Below are positions 1,575 to 21,461 of a DNA stretch of 25,036 nt, piece by piece. Each line of letters begins with the position of its first letter. Positions within the stretch are counted from its first letter, which is position 1. Both the position numbers and the translations under genes were made by a program. Below the pieces are notes generated by a model. It was given only the letters and a program-made list of their open reading frames with translations, did no database searches and was not told the DNA's origin. This DNA comes from Actinomycetota bacterium (lineage in GTDB: Bacteria > Actinomycetota > CALGFH01). Location of the stretch: NCBI GenBank assembly GCA_036395655.1, contig DASWDC010000054.1, positions 1 through 25,036 of the forward strand, read 5' to 3'.

Positions 1575-1622
1575 TGTGGATAACCCGGGAGGACGGTCGG
1601 GCTGCTGTGGCAGACTCCGGGC
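1575..1622 (+). promoter_or_regulatory. Leaderless uvrD2 promoter with an upstream perfect DnaA box
   Basis: TGTGGATAA (reverse complement TTATCCACA) at 1575-1583, GGTCGG at 1595-1600, -10-like CAGACT at 1611-1616, then ATG 6 nt later. Confidence 0.55.
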
Positions 1623-3671
1623 ATGAACCCGAAGCGACTCACCCACGATCTGAATCCCGAGCAGCGCGCCGCGGTGGAGGCGTGCAGCGGCCCGGTCTGC
1701 ATCCTCGCTGGTGCGGGGACTGGAAAGACACGGGTGATCTCGCGGCGGGTCGCCTATGCGATCGCCACCGGGGCGGTCGACCCCAGGCACGTGCTGGTGG
1801 TCACCTTCACCGAGAAGGCGGCGGGCGAGATGCGCGAGCGGCTCGCCGGGCTTGGGTTCCCGGGGGTGCAGGCGCAGACCTTCCATGCGGCCGCGTTCCG
1901 GCAGTTGCGCTACTTCTGGCCACGGCTCTCGCAGGAGCCGCTGCCGGAGGTGGCCGACTCGAAGGCCGTGCTGCTGGTGCCGCTGCAGCGCAGCCTCCCG
2001 GGCGGCTACAAGTTCACCGCCCTGAAGGACCTCGCCGACGAGATCGAATGGGCCAAGGCGCGGCGCCTGGACCCGGACGGCTACGCGGCGGCGGTGGTGC
2101 GGCTCGGCCGCACGCCGCCGGTGCCGGCCGACCTGTTCACCGGCCTGTTCCGCCATTATGAGTGGGCCAAGGAGCGCGCCGGCCGGATCGATTTCGAGGA
2201 CATGCTGGTTCGCATGCTCGACGCGCTGGAACGCCGCGAGGACATCGCCGAGGAGTTCCGCGGCCAGTATCGCTGGTTCTCGGTGGATGAGTATCAGGAC
2301 ACCAACCCGTTGCAGCAGGCGCTGCTGGACGCCTGGCTGGGTGGCCGCGACGACCTGGCGGTGGTCGGCGACGAGGACCAGACGATCTATACCTTCACCG
2401 GAGCGACCAGCGACTACCTGACCGGTTTCAAGCGCCGCTACCCGGAGGCGTGCGTGTTCCGGCTGGAGCAGAACTATCGCTCCACGCCGGAGGTGCTGGC
2501 GGTGGCGAACCGGCTGCTGACCCGGTCGGGCGGTTCGCCGGGCAAGCGGCTGGTGGCGACGCGCGCGTCCGGCCCCGAGCCGGTGATCGCCGCCTTCGAG
2601 TCAGCCGAGGGCGAGGCCGCCGCCCTGGTCGCCGAAGTCGGCCGCCTGGGCGCGCTCGGGGTGGCGCTTGAGGAGGTGGCGGTCCTGCTGCGCACCAACG
2701 CGCAGATCCCGCTGGTGGAGGAGGCGCTGGCAGCCGCGGGGATCCGCTACCAGGTCCGCGGCGTGCTGTTCTTCCGCCGGCAGGAGGTGCGCCGGGCGCT
2801 TTCGGTGCTGTCGTCCCGCACCGCGCGGGCCGCGGGCGGGGGGCTGGTCGACGCAATCGAGGCGATCTGGTTCGAGCGGCTGGCGTTCCGCCGCGACCAG
2901 GAACCTGACAGCGAGGAGGCACGCCAGCGCCACGCCAGCCTGGTCAGCCTGCTCGGCGTCGCCGAGCGGCTCCAGGCCGACGGCGAGCACGCCGACCTGG
3001 CTGGCTTCCTCGCCGAGGTGCAGCGCCGCGCCGCCGACGAGGCCGCCGGGGTGGGCGGCGGGGTGAACCTGCTCACCTACCACAAGGCCAAGGGCCTGGA
3101 GTTCGACGCGGTGCTGCTTCCGGCTCTGGAGGAGGGGCTGTTGCCGATCCGGCAGGCCAGCGAGCCGGATGAGGTGGCGGAGGAGCGCCGCCTGCTCTAC
3201 GTCGGCCTCACCCGGGCGCGGGTGCACTTGTGGGTCAGCTGGTCGGCTCGGCGGACGGGGCCGTCCGGGCGGGAGCAGCCCCGCAAGCCGTCGCGTTTCC
3301 TCGACGACCTGGTCCCGGTGGACGCCGGCCGGGTGCGGCCTCGGGCGGTCGCGGCGGGGATCGGGACGTCACGGGCCGCCCCGGGGGCGCGGGCCGGCAA
3401 CGGCCGGGCTGGGGAGGGCACCGCCGGTAACGGGCGGGTGGAGGCCGCGCTCAGCTCAGCTCTTGGCGAGCGGCTGCGGGCTTGGCGTCGGGACCGCGCC
3501 AAGCAGGACGAGGTGCCCTCCTACGTCGTGTTCAACGACCGGACCCTGGCGGCGCTGACCGAGCGTCGTCCCCGTAGCCGCGGGGAGTTGCTCGCGGTCG
3601 AGGGGATCGGCCCGACCAAGCTGGATCGCTACGGAGAGGAGTTACTACGAATCCTTAGTGCTGACGAGTAG
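1623..3671 (+). CDS. uvrD2: ATP-dependent DNA helicase UvrD2 with C-terminal HRDC domain
   Basis: Q motif LNPEQRAAV, Walker A AGAGTGKT, DEYQD, NYRS and LLYVGLTRA. HRDC-like RLRAWRRDRAKQDEVPSYVVFNDRTL...GIGPTKLDRYG. Confidence 0.93.
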   Translation: MNPKRLTHDLNPEQRAAVEACSGPVCILAGAGTGKTRVISRRVAYAIATGAVDPRHVLVVTFTEKAAGEMRERLAGLGFPGVQAQTFHAAAFRQLRYFWPRLSQEPLPEVADSKAVLLVPLQRSLPGGYKFTALKDLADEIEWAKARRLDPDGYAAAVVRLGRTPPVPADLFTGLFRHYEWAKERAGRIDFEDMLVRMLDALERREDIAEEFRGQYRWFSVDEYQDTNPLQQALLDAWLGGRDDLAVVGDEDQTIYTFTGATSDYLTGFKRRYPEACVFRLEQNYRSTPEVLAVANRLLTRSGGSPGKRLVATRASGPEPVIAAFESAEGEAAALVAEVGRLGALGVALEEVAVLLRTNAQIPLVEEALAAAGIRYQVRGVLFFRRQEVRRALSVLSSRTARAAGGGLVDAIEAIWFERLAFRRDQEPDSEEARQRHASLVSLLGVAERLQADGEHADLAGFLAEVQRRAADEAAGVGGGVNLLTYHKAKGLEFDAVLLPALEEGLLPIRQASEPDEVAEERRLLYVGLTRARVHLWVSWSARRTGPSGREQPRKPSRFLDDLVPVDAGRVRPRAVAAGIGTSRAAPGARAGNGRAGEGTAGNGRVEAALSSALGERLRAWRRDRAKQDEVPSYVVFNDRTLAALTERRPRSRGELLAVEGIGPTKLDRYGEELLRILSADE

Positions 3672-3703
3672 CTTGGCCGCTTCAGGCAGGCGAGAATAGG
3701 CTC

Positions 3704-3919
3704 ATGTCACGTCAAAGGGAACGGGGCGCCCATCCGCCCGTCTGTCAGTACTGCGCCCGGGTCGCCGACACCAACGGTCTCGGGTTGCCGTTCGGCTGGA
3801 CTGTCCAGACGGGAGCGCACGGCTTGACCTTCTTGTGCTCAGGCTGCACCCGCTCGAACCTGCGCTCGATCGAGTCGCGGATGTTCGAGCGGGACCCGGG
3901 CGGGTTCGGGCTGAACTGA
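3704..3919 (+). CDS. Small putative Zn-binding protein (CxxC...GW...CxxC-x-RxNLRxIE)
   Basis: Two CxxC pairs (CQYC, CSGC). Resembles, from memory, the small conserved protein found downstream of uvrD2 in other actinomycetes. Possible leaderless -10 GAGAAT 6 nt upstream. Confidence 0.65.
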   Translation: MSRQRERGAHPPVCQYCARVADTNGLGLPFGWTVQTGAHGLTFLCSGCTRSNLRSIESRMFERDPGGFGLN

Positions 3920-3946
3920 GCGGCTGCTCGGGCGCTGGCGCCTGCT

Positions 3947-4588
3947 TCAGGCGCCAGCTGGGCCCGGTGCGGCGCCTTGCAGCGGCGCGGCGGCGGGCTC
4001 GGCGTAGCTGATGCGCCTGACGTGATCGTCGTCGAATTCGATGGTGGTCACGCTGCCGAGGGTGCAGCGGCGCCCGCCTGGCCAGTGCCCGAGGGGTCGG
4101 TGCTGGTAGGCGAGCCGCGCGACCCAGATCGGCGCCTGATGCGAGACCAGCACGACCTGCTGGCCACGGAACTCCTCCCTGGCGGAGGTGACCGCCGCCT
4201 GCACCCGCTCGGCGAGGTCGACGTTGCGCTCGCCCCATGACGGCGTGCGGATGTCGCGCAGCTTCCACCAGCTGGCCGGGTGGCGCAGGATGTACCAGCC
4301 GACGCTGCCGGCCACGCCCTCGAAGATCGAACTGGACTCGATCAGGCGCGGGTCGGCGCGGACTTCCAGACCGTGGGCCGCCGCGATTGGCGCGGCGGTC
4401 TGCTGCGCCCGTTCCAGCGGGCTCGCCAGCACCGCCGCCACCGGGATCGCAGCGAAGTAGCGGGCGAGCAGCTCCGCCTGGGCACGGCCGCGAGCGGAGA
4501 GGTTGAAGCCGGGCAGGCGTCCGTACAGGACCCGAGCCGGGTTCTCGACCTGCCCATGCCGCACCAGGTGGATGGTCGTCATCGGCAT
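3947..4588 (-). CDS. Histidine phosphatase (phosphoglycerate mutase-like) family protein
   Basis: LVRHG catalytic motif, LYGRLPGFNLS, ASPLERAQQTA and VSHQAPI. Alternative start at 4582. Confidence 0.9.
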   Translation of the reverse strand: MPMTTIHLVRHGQVENPARVLYGRLPGFNLSARGRAQAELLARYFAAIPVAAVLASPLERAQQTAAPIAAAHGLEVRADPRLIESSSIFEGVAGSVGWYILRHPASWWKLRDIRTPSWGERNVDLAERVQAAVTSAREEFRGQQVVLVSHQAPIWVARLAYQHRPLGHWPGGRRCTLGSVTTIEFDDDHVRRISYAEPAAAPLQGAAPGPAGA

Positions 4589-4605
4589 GGGTATGACCTC
4601 GCGGT

Positions 4606-5829
4606 TCAGTCCAGGGGCGCGGGCGGGGGGATATGTCGGGGCATGGTAGCAGCGGCCGGGGCGACACCGGCGAGCACGGCAGCGACCGCGGCGAGCAGCA
4701 CGATCAGCCCGAGGGCGCGGGTAAGACCGAGCTGGCCGGCGACCATGCCGATCAGCGGCGGTCCGGCGAGCCCGCCAAGATAGCTCATGCCCGTCACCGC
4801 CGCGATCGCCGGGCCGGCGGGTTGTTGCACCGGGGGCCTACCGCTCGGCTGACCTTGATCCCCGGACCCCCCGGCGCCACGGCCGGCGCTCGAGAACACG
4901 ATCGGGATCGTGATCGAGAGCCCCGCGCCGAGCAGGCCGAAGCCGAGGATGCCGGCCGGTCGTGTGGGGATCAGCAGGGCGACCAGCAGGCCCCCAGCGG
5001 CCAGGCTGGCCCCGGCGCGCAGGGCCAGGCGCGGTCCCCAGCGGGCGGTGGCGCGGTCACCGAGGAGGCGGCCGCTGGTCATCGCCAGGGAGAACGCGGC
5101 AAAGGCGAGGGCGGCGACGGCCGGGGAGGCTGCGCGGACCTCGCGCAGGTACACCGCGCTCCAGTCGCCGGCGGCGCCCTCGCCAAACAGGCAGCAGAAG
5201 CCGATCAGGCCAAGCAGGACGAGCCAGCGGGACGGCCGGGCCAGCCGCAGGGCCTGGCGTGACCCGTCGTCGGCGGCGAGCAGCCAGCGGTTGGCGCCCG
5301 CCGCGATGGCCGCGAGGCTGGCGGCCGCGAGCGTGAAGTGCGCCGCCGGGGTCAGGCCCAGCGCAGCCGCGGCGCTGCCGCCGAGCGCGCCGGCCAGCGC
5401 GCCGAGGCTGAACAGGCCGTGGAACGACGCCATGATCGGCCGCTGCCAGGCCCGCTCGACGGCGATGCCCTGGGTGTTCATGGAGACGTCCAGCAGTCCG
5501 TTGGCGAGTCCGAACAGCAGCAGCGCCGCCCACAGGGCCATCAGGTCCGGGGCCAAGCCCGCAAGCGGCAGGACGGCGCAGTGGGCGAACACCGCCGCCC
5601 GCGTCACCGGTCTGCTGCCACGGCGGGCCACCAGCGCGCCGGCCAGCGGGATGCCGGCCAGCGCGCCGAGCGTCGGCCCGAGCAGGGCGAGCCCAAGTTG
5701 GGGGGCGTCAAGGCCGAGGTGCCCCTTGACCGCCGGGATGCGCGCCGCCCAGGTGCCGATCAGGGCCCCGTTGACGAAGAACGTCACCGCCACCGCGATC
5801 CGCGCCCGCCGCACGACCCGGTCCGGCAT
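4606..5829 (-). CDS. MFS transporter
   Basis: About 12 hydrophobic segments, with motif-A-like GALVARRGSR and GRLLGDRATARWG. Start uncertain (5829, 5859 or 5907). Confidence 0.88.
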   Translation of the reverse strand: MPDRVVRRARIAVAVTFFVNGALIGTWAARIPAVKGHLGLDAPQLGLALLGPTLGALAGIPLAGALVARRGSRPVTRAAVFAHCAVLPLAGLAPDLMALWAALLLFGLANGLLDVSMNTQGIAVERAWQRPIMASFHGLFSLGALAGALGGSAAAALGLTPAAHFTLAAASLAAIAAGANRWLLAADDGSRQALRLARPSRWLVLLGLIGFCCLFGEGAAGDWSAVYLREVRAASPAVAALAFAAFSLAMTSGRLLGDRATARWGPRLALRAGASLAAGGLLVALLIPTRPAGILGFGLLGAGLSITIPIVFSSAGRGAGGSGDQGQPSGRPPVQQPAGPAIAAVTGMSYLGGLAGPPLIGMVAGQLGLTRALGLIVLLAAVAAVLAGVAPAAATMPRHIPPPAPLD

Positions 5830-5905
5830 GAACCTCGCCGTGTTCGTCGTGGCGCTCACGCTGTTCGAGTTGGGTCGCGGTGACACGATCGGCGGCTGGA
5901 GAGAC

Positions 5906-5930
5906 AAAAAAGCCCCCGGACGGGGGCTTC
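5906..5930 (-). terminator. Intrinsic terminator (minus strand) upstream of the MFS gene
   Basis: The minus strand reads GAAGCCCCC-GUCC-GGGGGC-UUUUUU: a GC stem, a 4-nt loop and a six-U tract. Confidence 0.85.
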
Positions 5931-6006
5931 AACGCCACACTGAAAGTTGTCGAGCTGACCTCCAGCCGGTTCTGCGGGATTATCCCGCGATGGCTGGCGG
6001 CGCGCG

Positions 6007-6246
6007 CTAGTTCTTGAACGCGTCAGGCGAGTAGTTCCACGGCTGGCCGCGGTCGATCTGGAAGCGGCCGCCGACCTCGGGGTCGCGGTCGATGCCGACG
6101 ATCTGGTGGCACTTGGGGCATTCCCAGCGCTCAAAGCCGTGCGCGGAGCCTTGCAGCGTCATCCGCGAGCCGCACTTGTCGCACACCTCGCGCTGGAGGG
6201 TCGGGGTGCTGCTACCGCTGGTATCGCTGGGGAAGTCAGTACCCAT
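6007..6246 (-). CDS. Small zinc-ribbon protein (79 aa, CxxC-x17-CxxC)
   Basis: CDKC and CPKC pairs, high GC3, and the RBS AAGGAG upstream of ATG 6246 (the track start at 6345 is probably too long). Confidence 0.7.
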   Translation of the reverse strand: MGTDFPSDTSGSSTPTLQREVCDKCGSRMTLQGSAHGFERWECPKCHQIVGIDRDPEVGGRFQIDRGQPWNYSPDAFKN

Positions 6247-6518
6247 GTCGTCGTCTCCTTGCTCCTCCCGGTCGTTCCCCGAGATGCACCTCCAGCATGG
6301 CCCAAGTCGCGCGATCTTGCATCTGCCGATCGCGGGATTCCGCATGCCGATCTCGTATCAGGACCTCGCCCGATTTGTAGCTCCTTGCCCTCTAGGTAGT
6401 TCTACCGTTCCTCGGTAGTTCCAACCGGCTCCGCACCCTCTCGCATTCCCCGCATAGCTTCTCACGAAGCTTCGACGTTGAGGCAATGGACGGCCACGAC
6501 ATTCAATTCGGCGGAAGG

Positions 6519-6593
6519 GACGCCGGAGTTCACCAGAGGGTTCACCAGCCTGGCCCCGGCGTCGGCCCCAGCAGGGCCGGTACGATGCGGAGC
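6519..6593 (+). promoter_or_regulatory. Leaderless hut promoter with a direct-repeat operator candidate
   Basis: -10 TACGAT at 6581-6586, 7 nt before ATG 6594. GTTCACCAG occurs twice (6528-6536, 6540-6548, period 12), bracketed by the inverted repeat GACGCCGG/CCGGCGTC (6519-6526, 6556-6563). Confidence 0.6.
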
Positions 6594-8162
6594 ATGCCAG
6601 CACCAGTACCGGGCAGTCAGCCAGCGCCCCGGCGGGTCGTGCTCTCCGGCGATCCGCTCACCATCGACGACGTGGTGGCGGTCGCCCGGCAGGGCATCCT
6701 CGCAGAGCTGGGTGATACCGGACGCAAGCGTATGGCCGCCGCCCGCGAGGTGGTCGAGCGGGCCGTGGTCGAAGGCCGCCGCGTCTACGGCGTTTCGACC
6801 GGGTTCGGTCTGCTCGCCAACACCCCCGTCGCCCCGGGCGATCTCAAGGAGCTGCAGCGCCGCATCGTCCTGTCGCACGCCACCGGCAGCGGCGACCCGC
6901 TGCCCGCGGAGGTGGTCCGCGCCCTGCAGCTGCTGCGCGCCCGCACTCTCACCCAGGGCTTCTCCGGGGCCCGCCCGGCGGTGGTGGAGGCGTTGCTCGC
7001 CCATCTGGACGCCGGGATCACCCCGGTCATCCCCGAGCACGGCTCGGTCGGCGCCTCCGGCGACCTCGCCCAGCTTGCCCACCTCGCCCTGCCGCTGCTC
7101 GGCGAGGGCGAGGTCGAGCTGGATGGCCGGCGCATGCCCGCCCTCCAGGCGCTCCGCCAGGCCGGGCTGGAGCCGCTGCGGCTCTCCTACAAGGAGGGCC
7201 TGTCGCTGGTCAACGGCACCGAGGGGATGCTGGCGCTCGCCTGCCTGGCGATCGCCGACGCCGAGGCGCTGGCTACCGCCGCCGACCTGGTCTGCGCGCT
7301 GTCGATCGAGGGGCTGCTCGGCACCGACCGGCCCTTCCAGCAGCGCCTGCACGAGCTCCGGCCCCACCCGGGCCAGGCCGCCAGCGCGGCGAACCTCCGG
7401 GTGCTGCTGGCGGGCTCGCCGATCCTCGCCAGCCACCGCCACTCCGACCATGCCATCCAGGATGCCTACTCGCTGCGCTGTGCCCCGCAGGTCCACGGCG
7501 CCTGCCGCGACACGATCGCCTTCGCCCGCCAGGTCGCCGAGCGGGAGCTCGGCTCGGTCACCGACAACCCGGTCGTCTTCGCCGACTCGGGCGACGTGGT
7601 CAGCAACGGCAACTTCCACGGCGAGCCGCTGGCCTTCGTGCTCGACTACCTCGCCATCGCCCTCACCGAACTGGCCAGCATCAGCGAGCGCCGCGTCGAC
7701 CGGCTGCTCGACCCCGCCCTCAACCACGACCTGCCCGCCTTCCTGACCCCGGACCCGGGGCTCAACTCGGGTCTGATGCTCACCCAGTACACCGCCGCCG
7801 CGCTGGTGAGCGACTGCAAGGTGCTCGCCCACCCGGCCTCGGTCGACTCGATCCCGACCTCCGGCAACCAGGAAGACCACGTCTCGATGGGCTGGACGGC
7901 CGGGCTGAAGCTCCGCCGCGTGGTCGCGAATGTCCGCCGCGTCCTCGGGGTCGAGGCGCTCTGCGCCGCCCAGGCCATCGACCTGCGCGCGCCGCTCCAG
8001 CCAGGGGTCGCCGTGGCCGGCGCGCTTGCCCGGTTGCGCCGCGACGTGCCGCCGCTGGACTCCGACCGCTACCTTGCTCCGGACATGCGGGCAGCCGAGG
8101 TGCTGATCGAACGCGGCGAGCTGGTGGCCGCGGCCGAACAGGCAGTCGGACCGCTGCGGTAG
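6594..8162 (+). CDS. hutH: Histidine ammonia-lyase
   Basis: YGVSTGFG, the MIO-forming [36 protein letters not shown] and [11 protein letters not shown]. Start set by the leaderless promoter (track start 6486). Confidence 0.95.
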
Positions 8163-8235
8163 GGAGCCGCCGCAACGCCACAACGACGGCAAGTGCGCAG
8201 GACCGAGTGCGCTGGCAAGGCAAGGAGGAACCATC

Positions 8236-10557
<2,322 letters not shown>

Positions 10558-11350
10558 TCGCGCGGCTGCGGGCGCGCACCCCGCTCGACCTGGTGCCGAC
10601 CTTCCTCGGCGCGCACCTGATCCCGCCGGAGTTCGCCAGCGACCGCGCCGCCTACCTCGACCTGCTGGAGCACGAGATGCTCCCGGTCTGCGCGCCGCTG
10701 GCCGAGTTCGTCGACGCCTTCTGCGACCGGGGCGCGCTCACGGTGGAGGAGTCCCGCCGGGTGCTGCGGGCCGGCAAGCGCCACGGCCTGGCGCTGAAGG
10801 TCCACGCCAACGAGCTGGGCCCCACCGGCGGCGCCTGGCTGGCCGCCGAGCAGCGCTGCGTCTCCGCCGACCACCTGCTGTTCCTCGACTCGGCCGAGGC
10901 AGCCGCGATGCGGCGGGCCGGGACGGTCGCGGTGCTGCTGCCGGGCACCAGCTTCCTGCTGAAGACCGGTCGGGCCGCGCCGATCCAGACCCTGCGCGAC
11001 GCCGGGACCACCGTCGCGCTCGGCACCGACTGCAACCCGGGCACCTGCTACAGCGAGTCGATGCAGCTGATGATCGCCCTGGCCTGCGTCCACGGCGGCC
11101 TCACCCCCGAGGAGGCGCTGCTCGCCGCCACCGACGGCGCCGCCAAAGCGCTCAGCCGAGCCGGCCGCGCCGGCCGGCTCGCCCCCGGGTCCGCCGCCGA
11201 CCTGGTCGTCCTGGCCGGCCGCTCCTACGCCGACCTGGCCTACCACCTGGGCGTCAACCTGGCGCACCAGGTGGTCAAGGGCGGCAGGGTGGTCGCCAGC
11301 GACGGCCGCCCGGTCGCCCTCCTTGCCCCAGAGCCGGAACCGGCGGACTG

Positions 11351-12265
11351 ATGGGGCAGGATCTGTTCGAGAGCGTCCCCAATATTTCGGAGGGCCGGCG
11401 GGGCGCGGTGGTCGACGAGATCGCGGCCGCCTTCGCCGGGGCGCATCCGGACGTCCGTCTGCTCGACCGCTCCTCCGACCCGGATCACAACCGCTCGGTG
11501 CTGACGCTGGCAGGGCCTGGCGCGGCCCTGGTGGAGGCCGCGGTGGCCGGGGCGGCCGCGTGCGCCCGCCTGATCGACCTCACCCAGCAGGACGGCGTCC
11601 ATCCCCGTATGGGCGCCCTCGACGTGCTGCCGTTCATCCCGCTGGGAACCATGCGCTTGGTGGAGGGCGTCCCGCTGGCGCTGGCGGCGGGCCGCCGGCT
11701 GGTCGCCGAGGTCGGCATCCCCGTCTACTTCTACGGCGCCGCCGCGCGACGACCGGAGCGGGCGGCGTTGCCGCGAGTCCGCGGCCGCGGCTTCGAGGCG
11801 CTGCTGACGAGCGCTGCCAGCGACCCGGACCGCGCGCCCGACCTCGGCGGCCCGGCGCCGCACCCGACGGCCGGGGCGACCGCGATCGGGGTGCGCTCCT
11901 TCCTGATCGCCTACAACGTGAACCTGGCGAGCGACGACCTCGCGGCGGCACGGTCCATCGCGACCGCGGTCCGTGAGCGGGACGGCGGCCTGCCAGCGGT
12001 GCGGGCACTCGGCCTCGCCCTGCCCGGCCGGGGCCTGACGCAGGTCTCGATGAACCTGCTCGACTACCGGGTGACCCCGCCGGCGGCCGCCTTCGCCGCC
12101 GTCGCCGCGCTCGCCGCGCAGCGCGGCGTCGAGGTGGCAGAGTCCGAGCTCGTCGGACTGATCCCCGAGGCCGCCATCGACGGCGTCGACCCGGCCGAGC
12201 TCCGGCTCCGCGACTTCAGCCGGGGGCGCCTGCTGGAGTGGCGCCTCCGGCAGGAAATCGGGTAG
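11351..12265 (+). CDS. ftcD: Glutamate formiminotransferase (stand-alone FT domain, no cyclodeaminase)
   Basis: ESVPNISEGR, DPDHNRSVLT, HPRMGALDV, IAYNVNL and QVSMNLLDY. Translationally coupled to hutI (TGATG). Confidence 0.88.
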   Translation: MGQDLFESVPNISEGRRGAVVDEIAAAFAGAHPDVRLLDRSSDPDHNRSVLTLAGPGAALVEAAVAGAAACARLIDLTQQDGVHPRMGALDVLPFIPLGTMRLVEGVPLALAAGRRLVAEVGIPVYFYGAAARRPERAALPRVRGRGFEALLTSAASDPDRAPDLGGPAPHPTAGATAIGVRSFLIAYNVNLASDDLAAARSIATAVRERDGGLPAVRALGLALPGRGLTQVSMNLLDYRVTPPAAAFAAVAALAAQRGVEVAESELVGLIPEAAIDGVDPAELRLRDFSRGRLLEWRLRQEIG

Positions 12266-14467: not shown

Positions 14468-14519
14468 TCGACAGGGATGGCGCCCCCGGTTATAGTGAGT
14501 AAGTCGAACATGTGTTCGA
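14468..14519 (+). promoter_or_regulatory. Housekeeping-sigma promoter with a perfect LexA (SOS) box just downstream of -10
   Basis: -35 TCGACA at 14468-14473, 17-nt spacer, -10 TATAGT at 14491-14496. TCGAACATGTGTTCGA at 14504-14519 matches the actinobacterial consensus TCGAAC-N4-GTTCGA. Confidence 0.85.
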
Positions 14520-14534
14520 CAGGGAGGTGCCCGC

Positions 14535-14870
14535 ATGTCCATGTTCCTGGCCCGGTTCGTCGCAGTCGTCGCCGGTGTCGCCATGATCACCCTCATCACC
14601 GGCAGCGAGCGCGCCCGCGACACGATCGGCCGCCACTCCCGCGCCGGCTGGTTCTACGTCCTGCTCGGCATCGCCGCGCTTGAGGTGGCGCTGTGGCGCG
14701 GCGGTTTCCATCTCATGGTGCGCACCCTCGGCGCCGGACTGCTGTTCGTCGTGCTGGTACCCGCCGTCCAGGTGCTGTTCGGCCTGATCGACGGCGTCTG
14801 GTCCTGGTCTCGGCGCCGTGTCGATCGCCGCACCCTCTACCGCGAGAGCGACAGCGTTCCCTGGCGCTGA
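14535..14870 (+). CDS. Small (111 aa) ~3-TM membrane protein, predicted SOS-inducible
   Basis: RBS GGAGG at 14523-14527, three hydrophobic segments and an Arg-rich tail. No family recognised. Confidence 0.75.
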   Translation: MSMFLARFVAVVAGVAMITLITGSERARDTIGRHSRAGWFYVLLGIAALEVALWRGGFHLMVRTLGAGLLFVVLVPAVQVLFGLIDGVWSWSRRRVDRRTLYRESDSVPWR

Positions 14871-14891
14871 CCCGCGCAGCCAAGCGTCAGC

Positions 14892-14927
14892 CCTGAGCAG
14901 GTTCCACCCTGGCAGATTCTGCTCAGG
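14892..14927. other. 9-bp inverted repeat (terminator or operator candidate)
   Basis: CCTGAGCAG at 14892-14900 and CTGCTCAGG at 14919-14927. Confidence 0.5.
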
Positions 14928-15013
14928 TATTGCGGTTCCCCGGCGGCTATGTGCTAATTGCGATACTCGCGCGTGGAGCGCTGCGTTCGGGGCTAAGGAG
15001 GGTGAACCGCTCC

Positions 15014-15574
15014 ATGGTACTGGTGTGGCTGATTGTCGCTGTGACCGCGTCGATCCTGCTCGTGTTCGTCGCCGGGGCGCCCAGCGGGTCCCAGACCATC
15101 GAGTTGATCGCGGTCGCCGCCGTGGTGATCGGCGGCCTGCGGTACCTGAGCCTTCGCCGCCTGCGGCTGCAGGCGTTCATGCATGTCAGAGAGACGATCA
15201 AAGCAGACAACCTGGAAGCGTACGTCCACCAACGCCAGGCGCTCCGCGGCGCCATCCGCAGCGCGCGGCGCGAGCGTCGGCTGGTGGCTCGATCCACCAG
15301 GCTCGGCACCTTCTATCCGCCGATCGCCAGCCGACCCGCCGACCCGGGCAACTACGTCAAGCTCCGCCTTGGCGGGATCGCCTCCCCCTGGGTTCGCGTC
15401 CAAGACGTCCGCGGCATGATCATCCGCTGGACTCCGTTCGTGCGCTCCCCGAACGAGGCCTTCCTCACCGAGCTGACCGAGGGTGTCGCCCACTTCTGGG
15501 GCGTCGACCCGACCGTGCCGATCCGCTCCAACCTGAACCTGACGGCCAAATCAGTCCAGTTCAGGCTTCCGTAG
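15014..15574 (+). CDS. Hypothetical protein with 2 N-terminal TM helices and a soluble C-terminal domain
   Basis: Open frame from 14930. AAGGAGG at 14995-15001 favours a start at 15002 or 15014. Two hydrophobic segments. Confidence 0.65.
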   Translation: MVLVWLIVAVTASILLVFVAGAPSGSQTIELIAVAAVVIGGLRYLSLRRLRLQAFMHVRETIKADNLEAYVHQRQALRGAIRSARRERRLVARSTRLGTFYPPIASRPADPGNYVKLRLGGIASPWVRVQDVRGMIIRWTPFVRSPNEAFLTELTEGVAHFWGVDPTVPIRSNLNLTAKSVQFRLP

Positions 15575-15637
15575 CGGAAACCGCGACCAAACGCCCGCAA
15601 GAACGCGCTGACGAGGCCCCGGTGACCGTGGGTCCCG

Positions 15638-15662
15638 CTCCCTGTCTTCCCCTTACAGGGAG
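15638..15662 (+). terminator. Hairpin downstream of the 15014-15574 gene
   Basis: CTCCCTGT-(9 nt)-ACAGGGAG; no U tract. Confidence 0.4.
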
Positions 15663-15731
15663 ATGGCCGTTGTCTCACCGGAGGCCTCGTCGTCAGCACG
15701 ATCGCATGCCGCCCCGGGCGCGTCAACGAAC

Positions 15732-15895
15732 CTGTCCCCAGGGTCTGTGGATAGTGCTGGGGACAACCTGACCTGCGCTGTTGATCATGGATCGGGAACT
15801 GTGGACAACCAGCGGGCGGCTGGGGACAGGGAGATGGACATTCGGTGTCCACTACCACGATGACCTGCCCCGCGCTCGCCAAAGCCTGTGGACAG
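15732..15895. promoter_or_regulatory. Cluster of DnaA boxes
   Basis: CTGTCCCCA 15732, TGTGGATAG 15746, TGGGGACAA 15758, TGTGGACAA 15800 (perfect TTGTCCACA), TGGGGACAG 15821, GTGTCCACT 15845 and TGTGGACAG 15887, all within 0-2 mismatches of TT(A/G)TCCACA. Confidence 0.75.
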
Positions 15896-15935
15896 AGAAA
15901 TATTTCTGTCACACCGGCGTGCCATACTCCCCCGG

Positions 15936-16466
15936 ATGGCCGAACCAACCACCTCGCAGCCGCCCGTCCGGGTGATCCGCAGCGCCCGGCGCCGCAAGAC
16001 CGTGACCGCCTACCGCGAGGGCGACACGGTCGTCGTCCTCCTCCCCGCCCGGCTCAGCCGGCGGGAGGAGGCGCAGTGGGTCGCCACCATGCTGCAGCGC
16101 CTGGAGCAGCGTGAGCGCCGCCGCCAGCCAGCGACCGACGAGACGCTGCAGCGGCGCGCGCTGCTGCTCGCCAGGCGCTACTTCGACGGCGCGGTCGAAC
16201 CGGCCTCGGTGCGCTGGGTCAGCAACATGCGCACCCGCTACGGTTCCTGCACCCCGGGGGACGGCACCATCCGCCTCTCCGACCGCATCGCCCCCTACCC
16301 GACCTGGGTGCGCGACTACGTGCTTGTCCACGAGCTGGCGCACCTCGCCGTCCCGGACCACTCCGCCGCGTTCTGGGCGCTGGTCGCCCGCTACCCGATG
16401 GCCGAGCGCGCCCGCGGCTTCCTGATCGCCAAAGGCCTGGAGGAACACGAAGCCGCCGATGACTAG
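15936..16466 (+). CDS. M48/DUF45 (YgjP-like) metallohydrolase family protein
   Basis: RSARRRKTV, RYGSCTP...IRLS, YVLVHELAHL and HSAAFW. Leaderless start: -10 CATACT at 15923-15928, then 7 nt to ATG 15936. Confidence 0.88.
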   Translation: MAEPTTSQPPVRVIRSARRRKTVTAYREGDTVVVLLPARLSRREEAQWVATMLQRLEQRERRRQPATDETLQRRALLLARRYFDGAVEPASVRWVSNMRTRYGSCTPGDGTIRLSDRIAPYPTWVRDYVLVHELAHLAVPDHSAAFWALVARYPMAERARGFLIAKGLEEHEAADD

Positions 16467-17767
16467 CCGCCGGCGTCCGGGCCCTCGGCTCGCGGCGGCT
16501 CCGCTTCGTCCTCGCCCGCGCTGTCGTCGCCGAGCAGGGCGCGCAGGCCCTCCTCCAAGCTGATCTCCTGGCCGCCGACCAGGCCGATCCGCTCCAGCCA
16601 GCGGCCGGGCGCGTCGAGCTCCTCGGGGGTCGGCAGGAAGTTGGGATGCGCCCAGATCCGGTCGAGTCCCTCGACGTCGGTGGCAGCCAGGACCTCGCGG
16701 CAGAACCGCTCGCCCCGCGCGACCGCGGCCTGCGACGGATCGACCCGCAGCAGCTGCGCGAACAGGGCATGCGCGCCGGCGGGGTCGGCGAAGCGGCGCT
16801 CCACCGCCGTCTCGATCGCCGCCAGGGCGGGCAGGCGCCCCTCCAGCACCCGGCCGCTGAGCCCCACCGCGTACCCGCCGGTCAGCGCCAGCAGCACGGC
16901 GAGCCGCTGGGTGGCGGCCTGGAGCGCCGGGCTTGGCTCGCCGAGCAGCCCACCACCCTCGAGCATCTCCTGCAGGTTGTCGAGCCGGTTCAGGTCCTGG
17001 AGCTTCTCCATCAGCGCGGCCGGGTCCGGCTCAGTGAGCCTCGCCATCTCCTCCATCAGCTCGCGCAGATGGCCGGGCAGCCACGCCACCCCGGCGAACA
17101 GCCGCTGGCGGACCACCTCGTGGCAGGCGAGCCAGAGCCGCAGCTGGTCTGTCGGGACGTCGCTGGCCTGCTCGAAGGCGTCCACGTTCTCGATCAGCAG
17201 CACCACCGTGGCCGGATCGGCAGGCGGGATCGCCAGGTCGTACTGGCCGAGCACCAGGCGGGCGAGCTGGCCGACCACGCCGCCGACCTGCAGGCCGGCG
17301 ATCAGGCTGCCGAGCCGTCCGACCATCCCGGCCATCTCCGGCGGCACGCCAGCCTCGGCCCCGAGGCCCGGGGCCGAGCCGGTCGCCTCGGCCACGCGGC
17401 GGGCGGCCGGTTCGACCAGGGGTGCGACCGACGGCAGCACCGCCTCGGCCCAGTCCGGCCGGCTGCTCAGCCGGGCGGTGAGGGGACGCGGCGGCGCCGG
17501 CAGGCTGCCCACCGGTTCGACCCACAGCTCGGCGAGGCGCAGACGCTCGTCCCAGGCACGCTGCTCGGCCGGCTCGGGAACGTACGCGGGGCTTGGCAGC
17601 GCCGGCGTGGCCCCAAGCGCCTCGGCCCCGGCGGCCGTCGCCACCGCCACCTGGCGGGCCAGCTCCCAGTTGACGGGGCCCGACTCACCCGCCAGCAGCC
17701 GCGCGAACTCGCGGAACAGGGGGATCCTGCCGAAGAACTCCCCGCCCTCACCTGGGTTGGCACTCAT
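16463..17767 (-). CDS. DUF2342-type 'zinc-dependent metalloprotease' family protein (degenerate Zn motif)
   Basis: GPVNWELARQVA, QVGGVVGQLARLVLGQYDLAIP and IWAHPNFLPTPEELDAP. Leaderless start: -10 TAGGAT, then 7 nt to ATG 17767. Its stop overlaps the convergent M48 stop (CTAG). Confidence 0.85.
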   Translation of the reverse strand: MSANPGEGGEFFGRIPLFREFARLLAGESGPVNWELARQVAVATAAGAEALGATPALPSPAYVPEPAEQRAWDERLRLAELWVEPVGSLPAPPRPLTARLSSRPDWAEAVLPSVAPLVEPAARRVAEATGSAPGLGAEAGVPPEMAGMVGRLGSLIAGLQVGGVVGQLARLVLGQYDLAIPPADPATVVLLIENVDAFEQASDVPTDQLRLWLACHEVVRQRLFAGVAWLPGHLRELMEEMARLTEPDPAALMEKLQDLNRLDNLQEMLEGGGLLGEPSPALQAATQRLAVLLALTGGYAVGLSGRVLEGRLPALAAIETAVERRFADPAGAHALFAQLLRVDPSQAAVARGERFCREVLAATDVEGLDRIWAHPNFLPTPEELDAPGRWLERIGLVGGQEISLEEGLRALLGDDSAGEDEAEPPRAEGPDAGG

Positions 17768-17931
17768 GCACCCAATCCTACTCGCGCAACCCCCGCCCCA
17801 AGCCGCGCCAAGCCGGTGGATTGTGTCCTGGTTCACCGGTGATGCTCCGGTCATAAGGGTGGCAGGAACGGTAGCCTGAAGCCGACGGCAAACGGCGTTG
17901 GCAAGCCGATGGCATCGGGGCTCCCCGAGAC

Positions 17932-19020
17932 GTGGAAGGGGCGGAAGCGGTGGCACGAACGGTCGCCCTGGCAGGGGCAGCACATCCGGGAGCGGGGCAG
18001 CTCGCTCTGGCGCTGGAGGACGACCCGGCGGTCGAGCGGGTCCTCGCCTTCACCCATGCCGAGCTGCCCATGCTCGGCCCGAAACTGGAGGTCGTACCGG
18101 CGGGCCCCGGCGAGGAGCGCTTCGCCAAGACTCTGGCCGAGGCCGACACGCTGGTGGTGTTCCCGCTGATCGACGCGACCGACCGCAGCGAGGCCGGCCA
18201 GCGGGACCAGGTCCTGGAGGGCGTGCGGGCCGCCCTCCAAGGGGCCACAGGCGCGGCCACCGTGGTGCTGTGGTCCAGCGGGATCGTCTACGGCGCCCAT
18301 CCCGACAACCCCGTCCCCCTCACCGAGGCGCAGCCGATCCGCCCGAACAGCGACTTCGCGCCCGCGGAGCTGCTGGCCGAGGTGGAGCGCCTGGTGCTCG
18401 ACACCGCCGCCGCCGGCGGCCGCGGCACGGTGGTGCTGCGCGGCGCCGCGATCTGGGCGCCGCCATGGGGGACGTTCCTGTCGCGGCTGCTGCAGGCGCC
18501 AGCGATCGCTGCGGTGCGCGGCTACGACCCGCCGGTGCAGGGCCTCGACCCCGCCGACGCGGCCAGCGCCCTGGCCTTGGCGACCCAGGGCGGACTGAGC
18601 GGCCTCTACAACGTCGCCCCGGACGACTGGGTGCTGGCCAGCGAGGCCGCCAGGATCGCCGGGCGCCGCCGCCTGGAGATCCCCGAACGGGTCGCCTTCA
18701 CCACTACCGAACGGCTCGGCCGCGTTGGCGTGTCCAGCGCCGTCTCCGGTGAGCTGCACTACCACATGCACCCATGGGTGCTCGACAACCGCCGCCTGCG
18801 CGCCGCCGGCTGGGCACCGGGTTCGACCACCGCCGCGGCGATGGCCGCAGCCGGCCAGGCCCTGCCCGAGGGGATCCACGTCGGCCGGATCCAGGTGCGG
18901 CGCAGCGACATCTACCGGGGCGCCGCCGCCGGGCTCGCGCTGGTCGCCGCACTCGCCATCGCACGCCAGCGGCAGGCGCGCCGCTCGCCGACGCGCCGCG
19001 GCACCAGCGGTCCGTCATGA
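17932..19020 (+). CDS. Atypical SDR / NAD-dependent epimerase-dehydratase family protein with a C-terminal membrane anchor
   Basis: SSGIVYGAHPDNPVPLTE, VVLRGAAIW, GLYNVAPDDW and HPWVLDNRRLRAAGWAP. Hydrophobic C-terminus followed by an Arg-rich tail. Confidence 0.8.
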   Translation: MEGAEAVARTVALAGAAHPGAGQLALALEDDPAVERVLAFTHAELPMLGPKLEVVPAGPGEERFAKTLAEADTLVVFPLIDATDRSEAGQRDQVLEGVRAALQGATGAATVVLWSSGIVYGAHPDNPVPLTEAQPIRPNSDFAPAELLAEVERLVLDTAAAGGRGTVVLRGAAIWAPPWGTFLSRLLQAPAIAAVRGYDPPVQGLDPADAASALALATQGGLSGLYNVAPDDWVLASEAARIAGRRRLEIPERVAFTTTERLGRVGVSSAVSGELHYHMHPWVLDNRRLRAAGWAPGSTTAAAMAAAGQALPEGIHVGRIQVRRSDIYRGAAAGLALVAALAIARQRQARRSPTRRGTSGPS

Positions 19021-19031
19021 GTCCGTCATGA
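19010..19031 (+). repeat. Exact 11-nt tandem duplication containing the SDR stop codon
   Basis: gtccgtcatga at 19010-19020 and again at 19021-19031. Confidence 0.9.
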
Positions 19032-19072
19032 GCGGGTCGCGCTGAGGCCACCATGCTGTAAGAGGGATTCCG

Positions 19073-20116
19073 ATGAGCAGGGCGCTCGCGATTGACCTCG
19101 GCACCGCCAACACCCTGGTCTACGTCAAGGGCCAGGGCGTCCGGCTCACCCAGCCGACGGTCATCGCGCTCAACGAGCGGACCGGCGAGATCCTCGCCAT
19201 GGGCGACGAGGCCTACGCCATGATCGGCCGGACCCCTGGCCACATCGTGGCGGTGCGGCCGCTGCGGGGCGGCGCGATCTCCGATTTCGACACCGCCGCG
19301 CGGCTGCTCCGGCTGCTGCTGCGGCGCGTCGGCGCCGGCCGGCTGACCCGGCCGAAGGTGGTGATCTGCGTCCCGTCGGCGATCACCCCGGTGGAGCGGC
19401 GGGCCGTGCAGGAGGCGACCCTTGAGGCCGGGGCCAGAGCCGCCTACCTGCTGGAGGAGCCGATGGCGGCGGCGATCGGCGCCGACCTGCCGGTGCTGGA
19501 GCCGGCGGGCAGCCTGATCGTGGACGTGGGCGGCGGCACCACCGAGGCGGCCTGCATCTCACTTGGCGGGATCGTCGCTCACAACGCCATCCGCACCGCG
19601 GGCTTCGACCTGGACGCCGCGATCATCCAGCATGTGCGGCGTGAGTACGCGGTCACCATCGGCGAGCGGAGCGCCGAGGCGGTGAAGATCGCCGTGGGCT
19701 CCGCGATCCCGCCCCACACCCGGGGCCGCGGGGGCGACGGCGCCGACAAGGTCACCGACAAGGTCGAGGTGCGCGGCCGCGAGCTGGCCACCGGGCTGCC
19801 CAAGACCCTGCTGCTCGGCGCCGCCGAGGTCCACGAGGCGCTGGAGGAGCCGGTGGGGCAGATCGTGCAGGCGGTCCTGGACACCCTCTCGGCGGCCCCG
19901 CCGGACCTCGCCAACGACGTCCTCGACAAGGGCATCTTCATGACCGGCGGGACCAGCCTGCTGCGCGGCCTGCGCACCCGCATCGCCCAGGAGACCGGCG
20001 TCCCGGTCCATCTGGTGGAGCAGCCCCTCGACTGCGTGGTGCTGGGCGCCGGCCAGGTGCTCGAGTCGTTCGACAACCTGGCGCCGCTGTTCGTCGGGAC
20101 GCCCGGGTTCGGCTGA
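19073..20116 (+). CDS. mreB: Actin-like rod-shape protein MreB/Mbl (orphan, no mreC/mreD adjacent)
   Basis: IDLGTANT, VRPLRGGAISDF, EEPMAAAIGA, DVGGGTTE and GGTSLLRGL. Confidence 0.92.
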   Translation: MSRALAIDLGTANTLVYVKGQGVRLTQPTVIALNERTGEILAMGDEAYAMIGRTPGHIVAVRPLRGGAISDFDTAARLLRLLLRRVGAGRLTRPKVVICVPSAITPVERRAVQEATLEAGARAAYLLEEPMAAAIGADLPVLEPAGSLIVDVGGGTTEAACISLGGIVAHNAIRTAGFDLDAAIIQHVRREYAVTIGERSAEAVKIAVGSAIPPHTRGRGGDGADKVTDKVEVRGRELATGLPKTLLLGAAEVHEALEEPVGQIVQAVLDTLSAAPPDLANDVLDKGIFMTGGTSLLRGLRTRIAQETGVPVHLVEQPLDCVVLGAGQVLESFDNLAPLFVGTPGFG

Positions 20117-20167
20117 GACATCAGACGCGGCCGATGCACCTTATGATGCGTTGAGAGGCAGGAGCGG

Positions 20168-21193
20168 GTGGGAGCGGGAGGTCGCGTGCGGCAGTGGGTC
20201 CTGGTCGGCGTCGGTGCGGTGGTCCTGGTCGCCGTCGTGCTGACACTGAATTTCTACCAGCTCCCAGTGGTGGCGCTGTCGCCCGGCCCGGCCGAGGACG
20301 TGCTCAGCCGCATCAAGGTGGCTGACAGCACCCACGTCTACGACTCCAAGGGGAAGCTCTTCCTGACCTCGGTCGGGATCGACGACAACGTGCGCTTCTA
20401 CCAGGCGATCCTTGATTTCGCCAACCCTGACGTCCAGCTGCGCCCCCGCCAGGAGCTGTTCCCCAAGGGCCAGAGCACCCAGCAGGTCGACCAGCAGAAC
20501 GCCAGCGACATGGATGAGTCCAAGCAGACCGCGATGGTGGTGGCGCTGCGCCAGCTCGGCTACCACGTCGAGCCGCAGAGCGTGACGGTCGCCGCCGTGC
20601 TCAGCGGCGCGCCCGCCGACGGCAAGCTCCAGGTCGGCGACCGCATCCTGCGGGTGGACGACGCCGCGGTCAGCAGCATCAAGCAGGTCCAGGACACCAT
20701 CAGGCGCCACCACGTCGGCCAGACGGTCGCCTTCACGGTCAGCCGCCACGACGCCGCCCGCACCGTGGCGGTCGCGGTCGGGGCCGACGGGGGCCAGCCG
20801 CGCGTCGGAGTAGCGCTCCACGAGGACTTCGGCAAGCTGCCGGTGAACCTCTCGATCGACACCGAGGACATCGGCGGCCCCTCGGCCGGGCTGATGTTCA
20901 CCCTGGGGATCATCGACAAGCTCACCCCGGGCGACCTGACCGGCGGCCGCAGAATCGCCGGGACCGGCCAGATCGAGATCAACCAGACAGTCGACCCGAT
21001 CGGCGGGATCGACGAGAAGCTGGTCGCGGCCAAGCGGGAGGGCGCCACCGTCTTCCTGGTCCCCGCCGACAACTGCGCCGAGGCCAAGGCCCACCCGCCA
21101 AGCGGCCTGCGCCTGGTGAGGGTGCGCACCCTGACGGACGCGCTCGACTTCCTGCGGCCGAAAGCTGGCGACCCAGCGCCACAGGGCTGCTGA
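20168..21193 (+). CDS. PDZ-domain Lon-like (S16) membrane-anchored protease, YlbL type
   Basis: N-terminal TM helix, PDZ-like SGAPADGKLQVGDRILRVD, and Ser-Lys dyad motifs GGPSAGLMF and GGIDEK. Alternative start at 20186. Confidence 0.9.
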   Translation: MGAGGRVRQWVLVGVGAVVLVAVVLTLNFYQLPVVALSPGPAEDVLSRIKVADSTHVYDSKGKLFLTSVGIDDNVRFYQAILDFANPDVQLRPRQELFPKGQSTQQVDQQNASDMDESKQTAMVVALRQLGYHVEPQSVTVAAVLSGAPADGKLQVGDRILRVDDAAVSSIKQVQDTIRRHHVGQTVAFTVSRHDAARTVAVAVGADGGQPRVGVALHEDFGKLPVNLSIDTEDIGGPSAGLMFTLGIIDKLTPGDLTGGRRIAGTGQIEINQTVDPIGGIDEKLVAAKREGATVFLVPADNCAEAKAHPPSGLRLVRVRTLTDALDFLRPKAGDPAPQGC

Positions 21194-21212
21194 CGCCAGC
21201 GGGGGAGGCCGC

Positions 21213-21332
21213 TCAGGAGCTGCGCGGGCCGCCGCCGGTCGCCGCCAGGATCACGCTGCCAGCCAGCAGCGCGAACGAGGTCGCGATGATCAGGTCGATG
21301 AACGTTGCCGATACCCCCTTGACGTCCCGCAA
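21213..21332 (-). CDS. Unannotated 39-aa single-TM small protein
   Basis: Translates as (M)RDVKGVSATFIDLIIATSFALLAGSVILAATGGGPRSS. TTG start with GAGG 8 nt upstream, possible -10 TACCGT (21377-21372) and very high GC3. Confidence 0.45.
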   Translation of the reverse strand: MRDVKGVSATFIDLIIATSFALLAGSVILAATGGGPRSS

Positions 21333-21419
21333 GCGGTGGCCCTCGCCGGTACAGGCGACGGCGCGCCGAAAACGGTACGGGAGTCATACCACTTTGCCAT
21401 GGGGCCCCTGTCGACGCCC

Positions 21420-21461
21420 TGTGGACAGTCGCCTTCGCTCTGGCCGCCCAAGTGCTAGGGT
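21420..21461 (+). promoter_or_regulatory. UPF0182 promoter with an upstream DnaA-type box
   Basis: TGTGGACAG at 21420-21428 and extended -10 TGc-TAGGGT at 21453-21461. Confidence 0.55.

Follow-up and report, generated by a model that had tools for sequence, protein, structure and literature searches.

We analyzed a 25,036-nucleotide (nt) stretch of actinobacterial DNA (hereafter the window), in which three genes lie behind promoters that carry a DnaA-type box, a nine-base word matching the binding site of the replication initiator DnaA. The window is contig C54 of its genome assembly, which comprises 2.2 Mb in 364 contigs, is 57% complete and has a G+C content of 72%. The DNA runs that contain this stretch are soil metagenomes, and the closest relatives by uvrD2 sequence are soil metagenome-assembled genomes (MAGs) labelled Actinomycetota or Actinomycetes. 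An initial annotation, made from the sequence alone, had placed each box 27 nt upstream of a -10 hexamer and had proposed that the three promoters form a position-specific class regulated by DnaA. Throughout, the box word is TGTGGAYAR, the reverse complement of its TGTGGAYAA form is TTRTCCACA, and distances are counted from the start of the box to the start of the -10 element, with 36 nt corresponding to a 27-nt gap.

All three boxes and -10 hexamers were found at the coordinates first given for them, on the forward strand, in the same orientation and 36 nt apart in each case. The first pair precedes uvrD2 (1623..3671), which encodes a UvrD helicase with an HRDC domain (PF00580, 1.8e-54; HRDC, 3.2e-20); here the box with its flanks, CTGTGGATAAC, occupies 1574..1584 (box TGTGGATAA at 1575) and the extended -10 element TGgCAGACT occupies 1608..1616 (CAGACT at 1611). 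The second precedes a gene at 15936..16466 that had been called M48 and that encodes a YgjP-like/SprT-like metallopeptidase (PF01863, 2.4e-21; PF10263, 2.6e-06), referred to below as the M48-like gene. Its proximal box with flanks, CTGTGGACAGA, lies at 15886..15896 (box TGTGGACAG at 15887) and its extended -10 element TGcCATACT at 15920..15928 (CATACT at 15923), while an array of four same-orientation boxes lies further upstream at 15746..15829, with perfect boxes at 15746 (TGTGGATAG) and 15800 (TGTGGACAA) and one-mismatch boxes at 15758 (TGGGGACAA) and 15821 (TGGGGACAG). The third precedes the gene of a UPF0182 membrane protein (21522..24425; PF03699, 6.1e-277), with the flanked box CTGTGGACAGT at 21419..21429 (box TGTGGACAG at 21420) and the extended -10 element TGcTAGGGT at 21453..21461 (TAGGGT at 21456). 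Read directly from the sequence, TGn precedes the -10 hexamer in all three, which makes them extended -10 promoters. Since the ATG codons of uvrD2 (1623) and the M48-like gene (15936) follow the -10 by 7 and 8 nt, both genes look leaderless, in the case of uvrD2 probably so, while the UPF0182 gene would have a predicted leader of ∼55 nt if transcription starts 6–8 nt past the -10. In the window as a whole, TGTGGAYAR has five matches, all on the forward strand, against 0.24 expected, and none of 100 shuffled sequences reached five.

Across the assembly the source genome holds 62 TGTGGAYAR boxes, 22 of which have a TANNNT hexamer at 35 nt (6 boxes) or 36 nt (16 boxes), while every remaining distance from 9 to 99 nt holds zero or one such hexamer, seven in all. 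The initial annotation had expected a sharp peak in this distribution rather than a flat one, and a sharp peak is what we observed. By box ending, TANNNT stands at 35 or 36 nt for 19 of 51 TGTGGAYAA boxes and 3 of 11 TGTGGAYAG boxes. TGTGGAYAA occurs 51 times in the genome and its reversed word never, the 11-mer C-TGTGGAYAA-C occurs 34 times against none for its control, and TGTGGAYAG is near its control (11 versus 5). Although genes cover 79% of the genome according to a crude gene caller, 45 of the 62 boxes are intergenic. For the downstream genes we used two sets of sites: 37 forward sites, defined as a box with at most one mismatch followed by TANNNT or a perfect box followed by [TC]ANNNT, and 19 strict sites that conform to TGTGGAYAA-N26/27-TANNNT. 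A codon-position test of the downstream coding strand called 10 of the 19 strict sites co-oriented with their gene and one opposite, with no call at the other eight. A start codon lies 5–7 nt past the -10, as in a leaderless transcript, at 8 of the 37 forward sites, and Pfam families were assigned to 29 of 35 open reading frames (ORFs) downstream of forward sites. The distance peak, the intergenic location, the strand bias and the leaderless starts together bear out the position-specific class as real.

A subset of these promoters shares more than box and -10: they read GATAGNNT, followed 6–7 nt further on, where the transcript is predicted to start, by a G/C palindrome (GGGGGGNCCCCC). This arrangement occurs on contigs C14, C95, C114, C154, C161, C222, C296, C335, C349 and C60, the copies on C161 and C296 being near-identical over ∼45 nt, and the genes behind it include those for citrate synthase, GlnE, an acyl-CoA dehydrogenase, a Helicase_C_3 protein and ArgJ.

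The dependence of the -10 association on the box word was read from variants of the word. Among one-mismatch boxes, 11 of 189 have TANNNT at 35 or 36 nt, and two-mismatch boxes are at background. The last position tolerates C (TGTGGAYAC, 4 of 9 with a -10 at 36 nt), so that boxes end in GAYAA, GAYAG or GAYAC, whereas boxes lacking the first T have a -10 in only 1 of 37 cases. The preference extends beyond the nine bases, with C before the box in 47 of 62 cases and C after it in 46. Among the 62 boxes, no conserved -35 hexamer was found between box and -10 at positions 13–18. Two familiar elements were considered and set aside. A sigma-70 -35 element does not fit, because the TGGACA within the box lies 28 nt from the -10 and there is no conserved hexamer where one would be expected. 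A class II site for CRP or GlxR (TGTGA-N6-TCACA near -41.5) does not fit either: the TGTGG of the box stands where the upstream CRP half-site would be, and there is no TCACA signal at positions 11–15 (at most 0.28 bits across the 62 boxes).

The inverted word TTRTCCACA has a register of its own. TANNNT follows it at 46, 47, 48 and 49 nt in 1, 3, 3 and 1 cases, giving 8 of 62 boxes, and the other distances from 9 to 69 nt hold zero or one each. All seven ORFs tested behind inverted boxes have Pfam families; the targets are an aconitase, a dihaem cytochrome c, pyruvate phosphate dikinase, ArgJ, an Fe-S/CCG protein and a leaderless UPF0102/YraN gene that is followed by a ComM-type gene. The eighth case is recA, which has a LexA-type palindrome (CGAAC-N4-GTTCG) in the interval from box to -10. 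Since the centre of the inverted box lies ∼12 bp further upstream than that of the forward box, about one helical turn, both registers are roughly on the same face of the helix. This register logic is like that of MarA, SoxS and Rob, whose asymmetric single site works near the promoter in one orientation and, inverted, about one turn further upstream; the protein family and the DNA word are different, and no AraC-type candidate for binding the box was identified. By eye, and uncounted, a TTGnnn hexamer is seen 15–16 nt past the inverted box in several examples. Upstream of recA (contig C201:6590-6643) the -10 lies at 48 nt, and there is in addition a TATGAT 8 nt past the box; the geometry of box and TATGAT is that of the mycobacterial RecA-NDp motif (a 9-mer, N8 and TAnnnT), with TTGTCCACA replacing TTGTCRGTG.

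The two registers bear on the possibility that RNA polymerase itself reads the box, either through sigma region 4 on a -35-like TGGACA or TTGACG one turn upstream or through the alpha C-terminal domains on an UP-like element. TGGACA is contained in the box, two uvrD2 orthologues read TTGACG at the same place, and the two registers are near the proximal and distal UP subsite positions. However, sigma-70 spacers are 17±2 nt long, a range that 27–28 nt falls outside, and a fixed sigma region 4 cannot explain a word that works inverted. The loss of the -10 association together with the first T of the box means that more than the GACA core is read, and the alpha C-terminal domains bind A-tracts rather than a 9-bp word that contains G and C. 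We consider direct reading by RNA polymerase very improbable.

The genes behind the boxes are rich in DNA repair functions. All four UvrD-family genes above the Pfam cut-off, in three transcription units, lie behind box promoters. Among repair and related functions, the forward register includes uvrD2 and the genes for a UvrD1/PcrA-type helicase, for an AdnA/B-type helicase-nuclease (which comes first in its gene pair), for Lhr, an SMC/RecN-type ATPase fragment, ComEA, a Helicase_C_3 protein, the YgjP/SprT-like peptidase, a JAB-domain protein and KsgA. It also includes metabolic and other genes: S6 (rpsF), citrate synthase (gltA), aconitase (acn), an SdhA-type flavoprotein, glutamine synthetase (glnA), GlnE, acyl-CoA and aldehyde dehydrogenases, homoserine dehydrogenase, CtaG, PspA and further genes. 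Over both registers, recA, yraN-comM, ppdK and a qcrC-like gene are added to the set. The link to DNA repair is therefore stronger than the initial annotation could know from a single repair helicase, given that all UvrD-type helicases, Lhr, recA and comM carry the box; its scope of targets has to be redrawn, as the set also spans the tricarboxylic acid (TCA) cycle, respiration and nitrogen genes.

This gene set raises the question of PafBC, or another DNA-damage regulator with a WYL domain, as the binder. Boxes at uvrD1, uvrD2, the adnAB-like genes, lhr and recA overlap with the mycobacterial PafBC regulon. The canonical PafBC motif is rare in the source genome, with only 1 of 266 TGTCRGTG words having TANNNT at the right distance, and in other actinobacteria a box is found ∼22 nt upstream of PafBC-type promoters (recA, priA, DUF222), both of which would be in keeping with a PafBC-type regulator at the box. 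The described mode of binding speaks otherwise: PafBC reads tGTCgg-N10-tAnnnT at -26 through one helix-turn-helix (HTH) domain while the other HTH contacts sigma (PMC8635444), and with one HTH on DNA and the other on sigma none is left for a second DNA site. Moreover, the canonical motif is present at 0–4 sites per genome in genera both with and without the box class, tandem WYL genes occur in all 21 genomes examined, and the motif, position and orientation of the PafBC element all differ from those of the box. We regard PafBC or a relative as a highly improbable binder. The PafBC/RecA-NDp motif itself (TGTCRGTG 8 nt before the -10) occurs in none of the three window promoters.

WhiA acting with WhiB, which the initial annotation had offered as an alternative to DnaA, has some points in common with the putative binder. 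The GACAA of the box resembles the WhiA word GACAC, the C-terminal domain of WhiA binds upstream of -35 in either orientation (PMC10243135), and WhiA binds the recA promoter region in Mycobacterium tuberculosis (PMC13473873). Its motif, however, contradicts it: GACAC has no distance peak in the source genome, with a maximum of five at any distance against a mean of 2.2, the TGTG half of the box is needed (1 of 37 without the first T), and 33 of the 62 boxes read GATA. The spacing of WhiA sites is also described as variable (PMC10243135), and that of the boxes is fixed. We give WhiA next to no credence, and even taken together, sigma or alpha, PafBC and WhiA remain an improbable group.

The three promoters were compared with those of orthologues, as the initial annotation had suggested. 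At uvrD2, six of seven orthologues retain tgtggCAGACT together with the leaderless start and the remaining one has CACACT, and the box position is kept in six close orthologues with a degenerate word (TGTGGACGG in two, TGTTGACGG in two, TGTGCACGG in one and TGTGGACAA in one). At the M48-like gene, [C/G]ATACT is kept in 15 of 15 orthologues, but the distance from the proximal box to the -10 is 36 nt in the source genome and 35, 44 (7 of 7 genomes of one genus, g3, of the eight genera of the same uncultured family that we labelled g1–g8), 46 or 55 nt elsewhere, five genera being covered in all, and the proximal box is absent from two g8 genomes. Because this distance varies among genera, the conserved feature at the M48-like gene is not the 27-nt gap; it is the same-orientation box array, which is found in the source genome, in 7 of 7 g3 genomes, in g4 and in one of three g8 genomes. 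Within this array there is an A/T-rich stretch (window 15835-15880; gagaaattctttgc in g3) that is conserved in loci L160-L167, and an A/T-rich patch next to boxes in a 72% G+C genome recalls origin-like or DARS-like sites. At the UPF0182 gene, all 14 orthologues, drawn from six genera, retain gtgcTAGGGT, while a box at 35 or 36 nt is present in only three: the source genome, genome G007 (TGTGGGCAA, one mismatch) and genome G012 (TGTGGATAG). This box is hence a late addition to a working promoter. As for uvrD2 in more distant organisms, the protein matches that come after the six close actinobacterial relatives (70–75% identity) are at 49–59% and come nearly all from Chloroflexota (Limnocylindria) MAGs rather than from other actinobacteria (loci L041-L115); no box was found upstream of uvrD2 in these more distant, mostly Chloroflexota, matches.

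The UPF0182 promoter is relevant to a reading in which DnaA binds the boxes but represses, or is merely soaked up by them. Since 11 of its 14 orthologues have no box, the box is not needed for basal activity, and all three window promoters, with their extended -10 elements, are able to work without upstream help. In Escherichia coli, DnaA represses dnaA, mioC, uvrB and other genes (PMC11317965). However, a box at -48 to -40 is clear of the -10, titration alone needs neither a spacing fixed to 1 nt nor two registers related by helical phase, and most promoters of the class lack a -35 element, which is the usual mark of activator dependence. Repression or titration therefore appears to us improbable.

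Across genomes, the two registers are distributed differently. The strict forward pattern occurs 19 times in the source genome, 1–51 times in 11 g3 genomes and 12–21 times in three g8 genomes; in the other five genera of the family it occurs 0–2 times (reversed control, 0–1), and in 380 other genomes of the phylum 0–5 times, near the control. The exception is a genus with genomes of 7–10 Mb, in which two forward sites recur in at least four genomes; fetched from two of these genomes, the sites precede a leaderless mazG and a DUF2520/Rossmann gene. The inverted pattern is present in seven of the eight genera of the family (11–24 in g8, 8 in the source genome, 0–8 in g3, 2–5 in g2, g4, g5 and g6, and 0 in g7; controls 0–2), and a few other lineages show a modest excess of it (for example 8 versus 1 and 6 versus 0). 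The forward tally includes genome G159 and the inverted tally genome G133, both flagged as unpublished, and no claim is based on either. In three distant actinobacterial genomes, a perfect inverted box stands ∼22 nt upstream of the PafBC-type element TGTCRGNG-N8-TAnnnT; the genes that follow are recA, a priA-type gene that is leaderless, and a DUF222 gene (loci L208, L210 and L212; genomes G071, G137 and G111). The available text of the PafBC promoter description mentions no box-like upstream element (PMC8635444).

The word itself points to DnaA. It matches the DnaA box at 9 of 9 positions, the consensus being TTATCCACA in E. coli and TTGTCCACA in M. tuberculosis and Streptomyces coelicolor (PMC4285127, Table 1), and the single position at which our boxes are degenerate is the one at which the E. 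coli and actinobacterial boxes of that table differ. The flanks also match those of strong E. coli sites, namely TTATCCACAg in DARS1, CTATCCACAg in DARS2 and gTTATCCACA at nrdA (PMC11317965, Table 1). Boxes are found away from promoters as well: on contig C218 (463-571, locus L034), six same-orientation boxes with spacings of 12 and 20–23 nt lie between the 3′-ends of convergent enolase-superfamily and Lrp/AsnC genes, where no promoter is expected. Non-promoter arrays such as this one and the one upstream of the M48-like gene fit DnaA, or a universal factor, better than an unrelated protein, and the conserved cases in distant actinobacteria (mazG, DUF2520, recA, priA and DUF222) likewise favour a universal factor. 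The variants TGGGGACAG and TGTGGACGG occur in the dnaA-dnaN spacer of relatives too, and perfect boxes lie upstream of dnaA in genome G007; dnaA was not found in the source assembly, which is little more than half complete. A precedent comes from E. coli, where DnaA on the boxes of the nrdAB promoter region is able to activate through a more stable complex between RNA polymerase and DNA (PMC8203912). Judged from these sequence features and from the spread of the inverted register over seven of the eight genera of the family, DnaA would be the best candidate binder, acting as an activator at the box promoters, a proposal to which we give an even chance. A further run of boxes, on contig C38 (715-900, locus L033), consists of five boxes (three perfect) and four GGCTGGACCGAC-like repeats within an open GCS2-family (EgtA-like) frame, as an apparent in-frame insertion of ∼78 residues, with an EgtB-like gene next to it.

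Several observations weigh against DnaA in this role. Genera g1, g3 and g8 of one uncultured family are the only ones with an abundant forward class, although DnaA is near-identical, domain IV included, in genera with and without the class, and no clade-specific change was found in the alignment of 10 DnaA sequences; because DnaA is the same in all genera, the difference lies in cis or in another factor. In g3 the strict hits are mostly copies of one stereotyped promoter-plus-leader element, only 11 of 30 downstream ORFs have Pfam families, and the downstream strand at 30 sites is co-oriented at 6, opposite at 5 and without a call at 19. The dnaA-dnaN spacers of 11 relatives contain one-mismatch boxes only. 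The breadth of the gene set, which takes in the TCA cycle, respiration and nitrogen genes, differs from the compact DnaA regulons that are known, and in E. coli, chromatin immunoprecipitation sequencing placed DnaA at only 16 regions, with paired boxes preferred and few of the 32 perfect single boxes within the bound regions (PMC11317965).

Some of these points are what one would expect if a different sequence-specific protein, such as a monomeric HTH activator or an RNA polymerase adaptor enriched in this lineage, reads the word and may compete with DnaA for it. An unchanged DnaA alongside a patchily distributed class and a broad regulon fits such a protein, as does the fact that a single box suffices here, where E. 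coli DnaA prefers pairs (PMC11317965); PafBC-mediated sigma adaptation shows that actinobacterial promoters without a -35 can need dedicated adaptors (PMC8635444). Yet no candidate emerged: no DnaA domain-IV paralogue was found in 21 genomes, each having at most one match, and none of the six box-driven ORFs that lack a Pfam family was recognised as a DNA-binding gene. An unrelated binder would also have to reproduce the DnaA box in all nine positions, in its flanks and in its degenerate position, and the non-promoter arrays and the distant conserved cases fit a universal factor better. On balance we find a separate binder of this kind rather unlikely, though a good deal more plausible than reading by RNA polymerase, PafBC or WhiA.

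If DnaA is the activator, the process could be pictured as follows. The forward promoters consist of the 11-base C-TGTGGAYAA-C at about -48 to -40, no -35 hexamer, and a TANNNT -10, often with TGn or a G at -14, 35 or 36 nt past the start of the box, while inverted TTRTCCACA works from a second register 46–49 nt before the -10. DnaA would bind the box as a monomer via domain IV and from both positions would help RNA polymerase to bind promoters that offer no -35 contact, in a manner that may resemble class II and class I activators or DnaA itself at the E. coli nrdAB promoter. The level or nucleotide state of DnaA would then govern how repair and recombination genes, and some of central metabolism, are transcribed. 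The motif, its spacing, its orientation to genes, the gene set and the genome distribution are direct observations; where transcription starts, which protein binds and whether it activates or represses are inferred from them. In its fullest form, which we advance only tentatively and hold at somewhat below an even chance, DnaA would be a global, position-specific, monomeric activator that works from about -44 in the forward and about -56 in the inverted orientation at promoters lacking a -35, driving recA, uvrD1, uvrD2, the adnAB-like genes and lhr, along with competence-type genes and some of the TCA cycle and respiration, and the weaker box wiring at recA, priA and mazG would be ancestral in Actinobacteria, laid over the PafBC and LexA damage responses.

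Such a system would have both precedents and new features. The DnaA regulons of E. coli (nrdAB, dnaA, polA, purH), Bacillus subtilis and Caulobacter use the same nine-base word close upstream of promoters, and their targets, like those found here, include replication, repair and nucleotide genes, with activation of nrdAB ascribed to stabilisation of the RNA polymerase-DNA complex (PMC8203912; PMC11317965). The known regulons, however, are small (16 bound regions in E. coli), with paired or clustered boxes and no single fixed position, in contrast to the single box, the two fixed registers and the dozens of -35-less promoters, central metabolism included, described here. The PafBC (RecA-NDp) promoters of mycobacteria are alike in lacking a -35, in pairing a canonical -10 with a single upstream element at a constant distance and in overlapping in repair genes (PMC8635444); they differ in that element, tGTCgg at -26 against TGTGGAYAA at -44, and genomes of this family have the canonical PafBC motif alongside the box class. 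The same-orientation arrays away from oriC, at the M48-like gene (15746-15895) and on C218 and C38, are like E. coli datA and DARS and the B. subtilis clusters, except that the array at the M48-like gene is also joined to a promoter. Among the papers listed by a literature search on DnaA boxes, none was seen to describe a class of dozens of promoters with a fixed register, a single box and no -35. DnaA at promoter-proximal boxes is already known, and the -35-less class in fixed registers, dozens strong, would represent a new variant.

Only a handful of genes are known to have DnaA as a transcription factor, and the mechanism by which it activates is still poorly understood. If the proposal is right, dozens of promoters with one box in a fixed place and no -35 would provide a clean system for studying that mechanism, and would create a direct link from the replication initiator to DNA repair and energy metabolism, in a phylum in which many promoters lack a -35 and are thought to depend on adaptor proteins. 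The recA box beside LexA or PafBC sites in distant actinobacteria may point to a further input into the actinobacterial DNA-damage response, a third one that has so far gone unrecognised. Should another protein turn out to read the DnaA word at promoters, it would matter equally, since it would compete with the initiator.

The element that accounts for most strict hits in g3 is ∼110 nt long (loci L127-L156; genomes G017 and G011) and reads GGGGC-TGTGGACAAC-C, a variable spacer, T.GGC-TACSCT and CCC..T..GGGGG.CC, followed by a semi-conserved tail that ends in GGTTCCGGCGTGCCC; it is sometimes found in tandem. No Rfam family was matched in 20 g3 loci, and RNAalifold, run on 28 of 30 leaders (the visibly divergent L143 and L153 being excluded), found no covariation and a stem of two pairs only. 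One possibility is a promoter joined to a leader or small RNA that is present in many copies. Elsewhere in the window, a tRNA gene lies just 3′ of the UPF0182 gene (24498-24571; RF00005, 65.5 bits) and is the sole family matched in an Rfam scan of the window, and a histidine-utilisation cluster at 6486-12265 comprises genes for an aromatic amino acid lyase of the HutH type, urocanase, an amidohydrolase and formiminotransferase.

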